From sequence record PP358550: 64,000 nucleotides of DNA; one strand, written 5' to 3'. The DNA comes from Escherichia phage FL04. The position numbers were made by a program, and so were the translations under genes. How positions within the stretch are numbered: the stretch's first letter is position 1; each line of letters begins with the position of its first letter. The notes beneath the pieces were generated by a model, which was not told the origin of the DNA, ran no database searches, and saw nothing but the letters and a program-made list of their open reading frames with translations. Shown here piece by piece: positions 3,202 through 59,426 of the stretch.

Positions 3202-3705
3202 ATGCAATTTACACCAGAAGAACTTAACATCATTGATGAATTGATGAACTCTAAAGAAAATATCGATATGTCGATCCTTAATGGATTGATCGAAAAGACT
3301 GAACGGTTAGTGCATCATGAAGCCTTGTATCGCGGTGTGAGCAAAAGAGAAGGCCGTAAGCTGGATACCTTAATTGTAGGTGATTCTTTCGTTGTAGATC
3401 GTCCTATGAGCTTTACGCCACTGCAATCAACAGCAGAGGACTTTGCAACCGATGTTTATGCAACAGGAAAGATTATTGCAATAAAACCTACCAAGCCTTG
3501 CATGAATTATTACGAACATGCTATTGACCGAGTGGTGTCTAAAGAGTATGACAATCCGACTACTCGACTGTCTTTGTATGCTATGTTGGCAGATGAGCGC
3601 GAGTGCATATACAAGACAGGGACGACCATGATCCTTGATGAGATCGAGGAAGTTTACGCGTGTAATGGCGATCTGATAGAGATTTACAAATTTTCTTTAA
3701 TTTAA
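3202..3705 (+). CDS. putative ADP-ribosyltransferase (ModA/ModB-like)
   Basis: 167 aa; R (LYRGVS), S-x-T (MSFTPLQST) and E-x-E (ADERECI) motifs in the order expected for R-S-E type ARTs. Confidence 0.4.
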   Translation: MQFTPEELNIIDELMNSKENIDMSILNGLIEKTERLVHHEALYRGVSKREGRKLDTLIVGDSFVVDRPMSFTPLQSTAEDFATDVYATGKIIAIKPTKPCMNYYEHAIDRVVSKEYDNPTTRLSLYAMLADERECIYKTGTTMILDEIEEVYACNGDLIEIYKFSLI

Positions 3706-52651: not shown

Positions 52652-52678
52652 GGCGGGAAATAATCCCGCCTATATTTT
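52652..52678 (+). terminator. rho-independent terminator
   Basis: GGCGGGA-AATAA-TCCCGCC hairpin followed by TATATTTTGG. Confidence 0.55.
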
Positions 52679-52723: not shown

Positions 52724-52888
52724 ATGAAAACTATGAATGTAAACATCCACGAAATCCATACCGAAGTATTCACCGAAGAAGACCAGTTTGGTGTATGGGT
52801 AAATCCTCATTCGATTACTATCGATATTCCTAATGACGATTATGATCCGTTCTCTCTGATTAGCGAGATTAGTTTCAATGACTTCTGA
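52724..52888 (+). CDS. hypothetical small acidic protein (54 aa)
   Basis: AAGGAAATTTTATTATG; not in track. Confidence 0.4.
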   Translation: MKTMNVNIHEIHTEVFTEEDQFGVWVNPHSITIDIPNDDYDPFSLISEISFNDF

Positions 52889-53357
52889 AATTGATATCTA
52901 TGCGGGTGGACCTTATCCATCGGGTGAATTGAGTAATTTCAATAAAAGACCATTCCGTTTATTTGGCTGCGATATTAACAGCACAGAAGGATTTTTACAG
53001 GGGCTAAGATTTAAGAACCCTCAGAGACAAAGAGAAATCTTTTTGATGCACGGTGGCAAAGCAAAAAGAACCGGAAGAACTGAAAAGATTGAGAATCACA
53101 TGTTATATTTTCAGGGTCGCCCGATTCATCGAATGAGTGAGCATTATTACAGACTGGTACATCTGGCATTTGTTACGATGGCACGGAATAACCCAGAATT
53201 TTGTAAAGCATTACTTGCTACCGGAAATAAGAAATTACGTCATAGCATAGGTGGAACTGATCCGTTAAAGACTATATTGACTGAATCGGAATTTTGTAGT
53301 ATCCTCAATGATATTCGTGAACGTTTAACAAAACGAGGTGAAAATGTCAATTCTTAA
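52878..53357 (+). CDS. NADAR-family (YbiA/DUF1768-like) protein
   Basis: 159 aa; GELSNFNKRPFRLFGCDINSTEGFLQGLRF and CKALLATGNKKLRHSIGGTDPL align with NADAR signature blocks. Confidence 0.65.
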   Translation: MTSEIDIYAGGPYPSGELSNFNKRPFRLFGCDINSTEGFLQGLRFKNPQRQREIFLMHGGKAKRTGRTEKIENHMLYFQGRPIHRMSEHYYRLVHLAFVTMARNNPEFCKALLATGNKKLRHSIGGTDPLKTILTESEFCSILNDIRERLTKRGENVNS

Positions 53358-54840
53358 TATCATTAATCAGCTTGCAGCAACAGACAAAACATCGCTGAAA
53401 GAAAAGATTCTGAAAGAATCCGCGAGCAATGAAACGCTGAAAGAATGCTTTTATCTGGCATATTGCAAACAGGTTACGTTTGGCGTAAAGAAATACGATA
53501 AACCGTCTCGCTATTCGTCTGTATTGTCTTTATCCGGTGCATTACAGGTCTTTAAAAATAAACTTGCCACGCGTCAAGTAACTGGTAATGCAGCATTACA
53601 GCTAGTTACCGATACTCTGACTTGCTTGTCAGAGGATGATGCTAAAGTTGCAATGATGGTCCTGAATCGTGATCTGGAATGCGGCTGTTCCGCTACCACT
53701 GCAAACAAGGTATGGAAGAAACTGATCCCCCAGCAACCGTGCCACCTTGCATCGTCATGTTCTGATAAGACTATTGCTAATATCAAGTATCCGGCGTATG
53801 CACAACTTAAAAGCGATGGCGCTCGTGGTATGGCTGATATTGACGGGGAAACATTAGCAATCTATACCCGCTCAGGTAATACCTATCAAGGGCTTGATGA
53901 TTTGTTTGCGGTTTTAGAGCGTCTACGAGGCCGTGGAATTGTTCTAGATGGCGAATTGGTATATATGCCTACCCTTTCGCAAACACCAGCGCAGAACTTC
54001 GTTGAAAGCGTTTATGATGGTACTCTGTCATGGATATTTGAAGAAGAGGAAATGCCATTAACGCCAGTAGCGGAAGCAGTGAAAGAATCCGTTGTTGCAG
54101 ATCGTCAGACCGGAAATGGTATCCTCAACAAATCACTTAAAGGAACTATTCCAAAAGAAGAAGCCCAATGTATTGTTTACACTGTCTGGGATGTTATCGA
54201 CCGTGATGTGTATTACGGAAACGAGAAAGCAACGAAGAAATATAAAGATCGATTCGAAGAACTAAAACAGATTGTTGAAGAACTTAACGATCCTCGTGTT
54301 CAGATCATAGAAAACACTGTAGTTAACAATATCGATGAAGCTCGCGAAGTATATCATCGTTATGTCAACATGGGCTTAGAAGGTATTATCCTTAAAAATT
54401 TACATGGTGTATTTGAAGATCGCCGTAGTAAAGATCAGGTTAAATTTAAAGAAGTGATTGACTTCGACGCGGAAATTGTTGATGTATATCCGCATAGTAA
54501 AGACCCCAATAAGGTAGGCGGTTTTACTGTCCGTAGTGCGTGCGGACGAATGATGACTAACACCGGATCGGGATTAACCGACACTACAACCGAAAAAGGT
54601 GATGATGGTACTGAACGTGTAATTCCGTTCGATCGTCGAAATGAACTCGACCGAGAAATGTTATGGGCTGACCGTCATAACCTGATTGGAAAAGTCATTG
54701 AGATGACATGCAACGGGTACATTCGCAGCAAATCACGTAAAGAAGATGAACCGGAGTTCTCTTTATTTCTCCCAATCATCAAACGTATTCGCTACGACAA
54801 GACCACTGCAAATACAGTAAAAGAGGTATTCGATGTGTGA
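53338..54840 (+). CDS. 30: ATP-dependent DNA ligase gp30
   Basis: 500 aa; adenylation motif I lysine in AQLKSDGARG, downstream nucleotidyltransferase motifs; N-terminus similar to T4 ligase. Confidence 0.92.
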   Translation: MKMSILNIINQLAATDKTSLKEKILKESASNETLKECFYLAYCKQVTFGVKKYDKPSRYSSVLSLSGALQVFKNKLATRQVTGNAALQLVTDTLTCLSEDDAKVAMMVLNRDLECGCSATTANKVWKKLIPQQPCHLASSCSDKTIANIKYPAYAQLKSDGARGMADIDGETLAIYTRSGNTYQGLDDLFAVLERLRGRGIVLDGELVYMPTLSQTPAQNFVESVYDGTLSWIFEEEEMPLTPVAEAVKESVVADRQTGNGILNKSLKGTIPKEEAQCIVYTVWDVIDRDVYYGNEKATKKYKDRFEELKQIVEELNDPRVQIIENTVVNNIDEAREVYHRYVNMGLEGIILKNLHGVFEDRRSKDQVKFKEVIDFDAEIVDVYPHSKDPNKVGGFTVRSACGRMMTNTGSGLTDTTTEKGDDGTERVIPFDRRNELDREMLWADRHNLIGKVIEMTCNGYIRSKSRKEDEPEFSLFLPIIKRIRYDKTTANTVKEVFDV

Positions 54841-55309
54841 TAATGAAGGGGCGAAAGCCCCTAAACCTAAAAAATTGTCAAAGAAAGAGCAACGCCAGAT
54901 CCTGAAAATGAAATATGGTGGACGTTGTGCCTATTGTGGTGAGGAATTAGGGGATCGCTGGCACGCAGACCACATCAAACCAGTATTGCGACGCTCAAAG
55001 GTAGTCTATGATGAAAATGGACGAATTGTCCGTAATGATGATGGATCGTGGAAGTATAAGGTTGTAGGAATGCATAAACCGGAGCATGATATACTTGATA
55101 ACATGAATCCGGCATGTGTGCAATGCAATCTTTATAAAAGCTGCATGGGCTTAGAATCCTGGCGTAAGTGTATACGCGAGAACTTCCAGAAGTACATTCA
55201 GCGCAATATGGGATTGCGAGCGGCTAAACGCTTTGGCTTGCTGTCAATCCACGACCAGCCAGTAGAATTTTATTTCGAAAAGTACGATCGCGAGCATCAA
55301 GAAAAATAA
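54833..55309 (+). CDS. HNH endonuclease
   Basis: 158 aa; CAYCGEEL...WHADHIKP...NMNPACVQCN HNH motif; start overlaps ligase stop. Confidence 0.7.
   Translation: MCDNEGAKAPKPKKLSKKEQRQILKMKYGGRCAYCGEELGDRWHADHIKPVLRRSKVVYDENGRIVRNDDGSWKYKVVGMHKPEHDILDNMNPACVQCNLYKSCMGLESWRKCIRENFQKYIQRNMGLRAAKRFGLLSIHDQPVEFYFEKYDREHQEK
54848..54861 (+). other. GC hairpin GGGGC-GAAA-GCCCC within the first codons of the HNH gene
   Basis: Same core as hairpins at 30017 and 42099. Confidence 0.45.
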
Positions 55310-58735: not shown

Positions 58736-58910
58736 TAACACCACAACTACACGGTAAAGAGATTTGCGATCTTACTTGGGAAGAGTTGGTCATGTATCGC
58801 GACACCTACAAATGGTTTGAATCCATGAAAGAATTTGTAGCAGCAGTACGAGAAGAAATGAGCATTCGCCAGTATGCGGACGCATATATTGAAAAGGTAA
58901 GCACACTATG
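58731..58910 (+). CDS. hypothetical small protein (59 aa)
   Basis: Overlapping start/stop with neighbours; not in track. Confidence 0.4.
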
Positions 58911-59426
58911 AACCGTTTAACGCCTAAACGCCGTTACTATACCAATACTAAAAACTTTGTCATCTCTGTTTATGAGGCGTGGTTAGAAGATGGCTTTATC
59001 AACATGAACCCAGATTATCAGCGTCCTTTGGTATGGGACACCGAAAACAAACGTATGTTTATCGAAAACCTGATTAATGATTTTCCGGTTGGTGCTATCG
59101 CAATGGCTAAGATTGATGATGGCTCTCGCTATGAGATCGAAATCGTGGACGGTAAACAGCGTTTAAACGCAATATTCTCCTTCATGAAGGATGAGTTTAG
59201 CATTGCTGGTAATGATGATTCTATGTTGTATTACAGTGATTTTACGCCAGCAGAAAAGCGACGTTTCCGAAATCTCGGACTACCCGCGATCATGATGGAA
59301 GAGAGCACACGAGAAGACCGATTAGAGTATTTCTACAAAACAAACTTTTTCGGTGTGCCTCAATCGGAAGAACATCGCCAGCATGTGATTGCCCTATTGC
59401 AAGATGAGCAATTAAAAAATAACTAA
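58908..59426 (+). CDS. stand-alone DUF262 / ParB-like (GmrS N-terminal type) domain protein
   Basis: 172 aa; DYQRPLVW and VDGKQRLNAIF (DGQQR-like) motifs; start overlaps upstream stop. Confidence 0.6.
   Translation: MNRLTPKRRYYTNTKNFVISVYEAWLEDGFINMNPDYQRPLVWDTENKRMFIENLINDFPVGAIAMAKIDDGSRYEIEIVDGKQRLNAIFSFMKDEFSIAGNDDSMLYYSDFTPAEKRRFRNLGLPAIMMEESTREDRLEYFYKTNFFGVPQSEEHRQHVIALLQDEQLKNN

Follow-up and report, generated by a model that had tools for sequence, protein, structure and literature searches.

The 159-aa protein encoded directly upstream of the DNA ligase gene in this DNA is most likely the Krischvirus (RB49-type) orthologue of T4 AdfN, a predicted guanine-N2-ADP-ribose hydrolase that would defeat the DarT1 toxin. 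This reading is carried by the ORF itself, its family, the modelled NADAR fold, the catalytic Glu and His, the C-terminal helix, the T4-type synteny and the signs of purifying selection. The identity is already known in substance: the function of the family was published in 2024–2025, the assignment to NADAR is older, and this very protein has stood in the databases for a long time as RB49 gp30.3.

The features of the window, which is the whole 64-kb stretch that was analysed out of a genome of ~164 kb, are collected in Table 1. The ORF runs from ATG to TAA exactly where the preliminary description had placed it, and its translation contains both of the signature blocks named there (SGELSNFNKRPFRLFGCDINSTEGFLQGLRFKN and KALLATGNKKLRHSIGGTDPL). 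The start of adfN overlaps the stop of the upstream 54-aa ORF by 11 nt, and the two are probably co-translated. A divergent relative (L005, 4847–5011) has the same 11-nt overlap, and its 54-aa product shows 37% identity to the one encoded here. An IPNDDYDPxSLI motif is conserved between these two short products. A reading of the 54-aa ORF as a divergent version of T4 30.4 was rejected, because its product has no similarity to gp30.4, the occupant of the same slot in T4. At the other end, the ligase ATG (the start as annotated in RB49) lies within adfN, so that the two genes overlap by the final 14 nt of adfN, and GAGG at 53335–53338 is read from the sequence as the ribosome-binding site of the ligase gene. 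The T4 record annotates a further out-of-frame ORF, 30.3′, inside gene 30.3 (L001, 4403–4630); no + strand alternative-frame ORF of at least 40 aa occurs within the RB49-type gene, and 30.3′ is not conserved there.

Table 1. Positions in the 64-kb window of adfN, its neighbours, the codons of its active-site residues and other genes discussed in the text.
Feature	Position	Strand	Remarks
ModB-like ORF	3202–3705	+	33% identity to T4 ModB, E=3e-8
GC-rich hairpin and T-run	52652–52670	+	Terminator-like site directly 3′ of gene 31
54-aa ORF (RB49ORF215c, 'gp31.-1')	52724–52888	+	ORF call; PHROG 15277, E=3.7e-42
adfN (gene 30.3 orthologue)	52878–53357, stop codon included	+	159-aa single-domain phage-type NADAR
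Glu37, codon GAA	52986–52988	+	Ribose-coordinating catalytic Glu, role from PMC11543638 and PMC11825919
Arg44, codon AGA	53007–53009	+	Site of the phosphate-coordinating catalytic Lys
His122, codon CAT	53241–53243	+	Residue defining phage (gp30.3-type) NADARs
C-terminal α-helix, residues 136–155	53283–53342	+	AlphaFold2 model, intact
Gene 30, ATP-dependent DNA ligase	53344–54840	+	PF01068; PHROG 114; 41% identity to T4 gp30
HNH endonuclease ORF	54833–55309	+	PF01844; PHROG 2118
172-aa ORF	58908–59426	+	GmrSD_N (DUF262) domain, 72.9 bits
Alt homologue, 683 aa	60028–62079	+	PF03496; E=1e-41 to T4 Alt
Alt catalytic-domain paralogue, 274 aa	62158–62982	+	PF03496, 59 bits

The upstream limit of the block formed by the 54-aa ORF, adfN and the ligase gene is marked by a hairpin with the sequence GGCGGGA-aataa-TCCCGCC, followed by a T-run. 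This hairpin is similar to the G(n)-loop-C(n) stem-loop found in PeSL elements of the RB49 type (PMC4122927). A search 3′ of the hairpin for an early/sigma-70 promoter, which would complete a PeSL element, found no convincing one, and promoter- and terminator-like sites are no more numerous than expected from shuffled sequence.

The 3.4 kb surrounding the gene share 98–99.9% identity with 59 phage records, and the window comes from an RB49-like coliphage, a member of Krischvirus. By tblastn, the adfN product is 100% identical to RB49 gp30.3 (AJ550428), and every close Krischvirus genome carries an intact copy of the gene. The cytosine of RB49 DNA is unmodified (PMC4041780). The genes are arranged in the order cd, 31.1, 31, 54-aa ORF, 30.3, 30, and the same order with the same overlapping junctions is found in the contig of a 69%-identical relative (P0002). 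T4 carries 30.2 and 30.1 between 30.3 and gene 30, whereas both are missing here and adfN directly abuts the ligase gene. Contact with a DNA ligase gene, to which the preliminary description drew attention, is thus real, and since the order is of the T4 type with 30.1 and 30.2 missing, it is to be regarded as inherited synteny plus deletion, not as a functional pair. When the 64-kb window was searched by tblastn with T4 30.1, 30.2, 30.4–30.9, rIII, AdfA (61.2) and AdfM (tk.4), none was detected at E<1e-3. The genes pseT (polynucleotide kinase/phosphatase) and rnlA (RNA ligase 1) lie ~1.6–4.5 kb upstream of adfN.

Downstream, the HNH endonuclease ORF begins within the ligase gene, with which it shares 8 nt. 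RB49 has ~350 bp of additional sequence (ORF211c) just 3′ of this ORF that is absent from the window, which makes the site an indel hotspot. Farther downstream, the 172-aa ORF carries GmrSD_N, the domain found at the N-terminus of a family of type IV restriction enzymes; the phage that encodes it has unmodified DNA.

The adfN product belongs to the Pfam family PF08010 (Phage_30_3, 'Bacteriophage protein GP30.3'), which it matches over positions 2–138 of the 138 in the model, above the gathering threshold (132.5 bits against a cutoff of 36, E=1.2e-38) and far beyond chance. It also matches PHROG 652, a group of unknown function (E=2.5e-45); NCBIfam has no model either for it or for the ADP-ribosyltransferase (ART)-like proteins of the window. 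The Pfam NADAR model PF08719 scores 15.5 bits against a gathering cutoff of 35.1 (E=0.021), the gp30.3 clade being too divergent for that model, and a profile of 12 homologues searched against the PDB reached only YbiA (2b3w, E=0.12). Sequence methods therefore hint at NADAR for a gp30.3-type protein and fall short of proof, for which structure prediction is needed. With PF08719 below its threshold, membership in NADAR rests on fold, motifs and homology to T4 gp30.3.

An AlphaFold2 model built from an alignment of 12 sequences is confident (pLDDT 94.2, pTM 0.89) and displays the YbiA fold, a helical core flanked by two small β-sheets. The only meaningful matches of this model in the PDB, as compared with Foldseek, are YbiA (2b3w; E=2.5e-6, TM 0.65) and the Phytophthora NADAR with ADP-ribose (8bau; E=1e-3, TM 0.61), the next match having E=3.2. 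A comparison with predicted viral structures places phage proteins of the gp30.3 type first (TM ~0.9) and, after them, dozens that carry a NADAR annotation. As judged from the predicted structure, the NADAR fold of the adfN product is established, which agrees with the family named in the preliminary description. A nominally significant phmmer match against PDB sequences (7vhv, a D-alanyl carrier protein ligase; E=3.8e-4) received no support from the fold comparison and was discarded as a false positive.

Homologues were found by tblastn in 1509 phage records, all but eight of which (1501/1509) cover at least 80% of the query, and these records come mostly from T4-like phages of enterobacteria, Aeromonas, Acinetobacter and Vibrio. 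An exhaustive profile search gathered 1665 clusters (50% identity) at E≤1e-3. Many metagenomic members of the gp30.3 family are multidomain proteins of up to 559 aa (representatives P0014, P0022, P0031, P0058 and P0087), and several have more than one gp30.3-type domain match each; the catalytic Glu is lost in the aligned domain of P0031 (Q) and of P0058 (A).

The function of the T4 orthologue is well documented. T4 gene 30.3 was mapped with chimeric phages as the determinant of DarTG1 resistance and renamed adfN, for anti-DarT factor NADAR, a guanine-specific DNA ADP-ribosylglycohydrolase (PMC11825919). The gene is necessary, since T4 and T2 phages that lack it fail on hosts with DarTG1, and supplying it in trans is sufficient for RB69; purified T4 AdfN takes ADP-ribose off DarT1-modified DNA (PMC11825919); hydrolysis of guanosine-ADPr in vitro by the T4 protein was independently reported (PMC11125620). 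In a transposon screen, 30.3/adfN was conditionally essential only on DarTG1 hosts and non-essential on plain K-12. E36A impairs T4 AdfN and K43A is partly defective, thymidine-modifying DarTG2 is not countered by the protein, and RB69 is sensitive to DarTG1 owing to a frameshift that cuts off the last 15 residues of AdfN, which form a terminal helix; truncated T4 AdfN has reduced activity (PMC11825919). T4 AdfN is fully effective only during T-even infection and by itself does not rescue uninfected E. coli (PMC11825919), which suggests a T-even cofactor.

A structural study of NADARs had already listed 'phage NADARs' as a clade (PMC11543638). G-ADPr is reported to be removed from RNA as well by members of each NADAR family, that of phage T4 among them, and the tested phage NADAR, which acts on guanine-ADPr in nucleic acid and not on thymidine-ADPr, is not listed among the erasers of cytidine-ADPr (PMC12945103). 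The alleles tested against DarTG were those of T4 and T2 and two unrelated phage NADARs, and the accompanying Tevenvirinae panel names no RB49-like phage (PMC11825919). A literature search found no DarTG test on a Krischvirus/RB49-like phage or allele, and RB49 was not found in the supplements that list published NADAR sets. The chemistry, the guanine specificity and the anti-DarTG1 role of the RB49-type protein would be those reported for its T4 orthologue, and the proposal of the preliminary description that the gene encodes a candidate anti-DarT remover of ADP-ribose is well matched by what is now known of AdfN (PMC11825919; PMC11125620).

T4 gp30.3 and the adfN product align end to end, up to the last residue of T4 AdfN, with 38% identity (E=2e-30). 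Family columns were counted in 170 aligned domains, made up of 150 cluster representatives and close homologues. Glu37 aligns with T4 E36, PnNADAR E43 and E88 of the E. coli C7 DarG1, and also with the YbiA Glu in the profile match to 2b3w, and its column holds E in 162 of the 170 domains. His122 aligns with T4 H123, is H in 158/170 domains, and directly follows the last β-strand (119–121) of the AlphaFold2 model; in phage NADARs, His at this position of the last strand replaces the YbiA Glu or the DarG1 Asp (PMC11125620, PMC11543638). The protein consists of the bare core NADAR domain without an N-terminal extension. T135 and E138, at the C-terminal helix, are near-invariant in the family alignment.

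The remaining catalytic position departs from the family. A Lys stands seven residues after the Glu in every reference (T4 K43, PnNADAR K50, DarG1 K95), where it coordinates the ADP-ribose phosphates (PMC11543638), and its place is taken here by Arg44. The catalytic-residue check attached to the preliminary description is therefore passed for the most part, with E37 and H122 in place and a conservative substitution at the Lys. Across the family this column holds K in 159 domains and R in six, and in the family alignment only the RB49 group, the 69%-identical P0002 and the unrelated P0144 combine Arg with unaltered Glu and His. The change from Lys to Arg is a lineage-specific, conservative replacement, and since the equivalent DarG1 mutant remains active in vitro, it weakens the functional resemblance to NADAR only slightly. 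In the DarG1 of E. coli C7, however, K95R retained hydrolysis in vitro and lost in vivo rescue from DarT1 toxicity (PMC11543638), so that full anti-DarTG1 potency of the RB49-type allele cannot be assumed. Compared with the gene of the P0002 relative, adfN has diverged by ~31% at the protein level with a dN/dS of ~0.12, a rough value since dS (~1.7) is near saturation, and Arg44 and every other invariant residue have been kept. This low ratio indicates that the Arg-bearing enzyme is maintained under purifying selection and is not decaying. That the RB49 allele, with Arg for the catalytic Lys, works efficiently in vivo is something we infer.

In the proposed mechanism, the host DarT1 toxin would ADP-ribosylate N2 of guanines in the replicating phage DNA. 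The adfN product would bind the ADP-ribose, with Arg44 holding the pyrophosphate and Glu37 and His122 flanking the distal ribose, and, as a minimal single-domain NADAR N-glycosidase, would hydrolyse the bond between ribose and guanine, so that ADP-ribose is released and replicable DNA is restored. The expected outcome would be growth of the phage on DarTG1-carrying E. coli.

Several points count against a plain AdfN reading, namely the replacement of the catalytic Lys, in view of the DarG1 K95R result; the full effect of T4 AdfN only during T-even infection, with the T-even cofactor that this suggests; the position of RB49 outside the Tevenvirinae, with unmodified cytosine and without 30.1, 30.2 and 30.4–30.9 in the region; and the score below the PF08719 threshold. 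The Arg in place of a near-universal Lys, the plain-cytosine DNA and the lack of 30.1 and 30.2 as neighbours give rise to the idea, to which a rather low probability is assigned, that RB49-type AdfN is a naturally re-tuned variant, suited to ordinary DNA without a T-even helper or to another DarT1 variant or substrate, for example RNA-G-ADPr. If this were true, a comparison of the RB49 and T4 alleles would reveal what sets NADAR specificity in vivo. It is also conceivable, and on balance unlikely, that the protein is an active NADAR hydrolase whose main substrate is something other than DarT1-modified DNA, such as RNA ADP-ribosylated at guanine, the products of further ART toxins that target guanine, or soluble derivatives of ADP-ribose linked to host NAD+-based immunity or RNA repair. 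The reported removal of G-ADPr from RNA by representatives of all NADAR families (PMC12945103) and the location of pseT and rnlA fit such a role, and the rare Lys-to-Arg change could reflect a shifted substrate; yet the only demonstrated in vivo phenotype of the T4 orthologue, reached by two independent genetic approaches, is DarTG1 counter-defence, pseT and rnlA lie nearby as part of the usual T4-type arrangement and not in a dedicated operon, and no soluble substrate is reported for any gp30.3-type protein in the cited literature. An allele that is active in vitro and contributes little to counter-defence, whether through the Lys-to-Arg change, a missing T-even helper or both, is distinctly improbable; it would leave the phage sensitive to DarTG1 or dependent on other factors. 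The behaviour of DarG1 K95R and T4 K43A, the failure of T4 AdfN alone to rescue uninfected E. coli, and the absence of detectable homologues of 30.2, AdfA (61.2) and AdfM (tk.4) from the window would be consistent with attenuation, but Arg44 has been kept across the divergence from P0002 under a low dN/dS, the independent member P0144 likewise combines R with an intact E and H, Arg preserves the positive charge for phosphate binding, and the gene is intact throughout the close Krischvirus genomes, unlike the frameshifted RB69 allele.

The window also encodes three ART-like genes, as the preliminary description had noted in suggesting that the phage may both write and erase ADP-ribosylation: an Alt homologue, a 274-aa protein that matches the catalytic domain of Alt only and shares 34–37% identity with its Alt paralogue in the window, and a ModB-like ORF. 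The suggestion stands as far as transferases and an ADP-ribose hydrolase are both encoded, but no evidence couples them. It is very improbable that the adfN product removes marks set by the Alt/Mod-type transferases of the phage itself and so tunes or resets the ADP-ribosylation of proteins in the infected cell. Large phages do tend to carry macro, NADAR and ART genes together (PMC9503650); Alt, ModA and ModB, however, are described in the T4 record notes as enzymes that modify proteins, RNA polymerase among them, while the characterised NADARs act on nucleic acids, where they cut the N-glycosidic bond to guanine or, in some cases, to cytosine. Because Alt and Mod modify proteins and the phage NADAR is guanine-specific on nucleic acid, a coupled write-and-erase circuit is not supported. 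Moreover, the ART genes are at least 6.7 kb away and are not co-transcribed with adfN, and the phenotype of the T4 deletion is specific to DarTG1 hosts, the gene being dispensable on plain K-12. Scarcely credible is a YbiA-like housekeeping N-glycosidase that acts on reactive intermediates of the riboflavin pathway: the defining last-strand Glu is His here, such an enzyme would be of no evident use to a lytic phage, and the phenotype of the T4 orthologue is clearly related to defence.

The AdfN reading adds little new biology, and its main lesson is that a sequence-only reader was able to recognise a phage counter-defence enzyme. The label 'hypothetical protein' of Krischvirus gene 30.3 can be replaced by 'AdfN-like NADAR, predicted DNA ADP-ribosylglycohydrolase', and several of the Krischvirus records that bear the old label stem from phage-therapy studies. 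The reading predicts that RB49-like phages resist DarTG1-type defence. The sole feature that deserves follow-up is the rare, selectively maintained Lys-to-Arg change in a phage with unmodified DNA, since this natural variant offers a comparison for the question of why NADARs that are equal in vitro differ so greatly in vivo.

Among known systems, T4 AdfN is the closest counterpart. Both proteins belong to PF08010, are of similar length (159 aa here, 152 aa in T4) and consist of a single core NADAR domain without an N-terminal extension, and they share the catalytic Glu, the clade-specific His, an intact C-terminal helix and the slot between gene 31 and gene 30. They differ in that identity is only 38%, that Arg44 stands for T4 Lys43, and that T4 DNA contains glucosyl-hmC whereas Krischvirus DNA contains unmodified cytosine. 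DarG1, the NADAR antitoxin of DarTG1 (E. coli C7 NADAR; G. lovleyi NADAR, PDB 8BAT), is set apart by several features: no ART gene is adjacent to adfN, whose neighbours are the 54-aa ORF and the ligase gene, the N-terminal extension is lacking, and His replaces Asp. The adfN product is therefore an orphan antitoxin-like enzyme and not a DarG1. PnNADAR of Phytophthora nicotianae (PDB 8BAU, complex with ADP-ribose) and E. coli YbiA (2B3W) share 21–22% identity with the protein; both carry the YbiA-type last-strand Glu (E125 in PnNADAR) where the adfN product has His, the role of YbiA is metabolic, and neither is a phage counter-defence protein. AdfN-Bas32 and AdfN-Bas60, finally, resemble it as guanine-specific orphan NADARs of phages that neutralise DarT1 (PMC11825919), but they belong to other NADAR clades, were independently acquired and work without the phage context, whereas the protein described here is a member of the gp30.3 clade.
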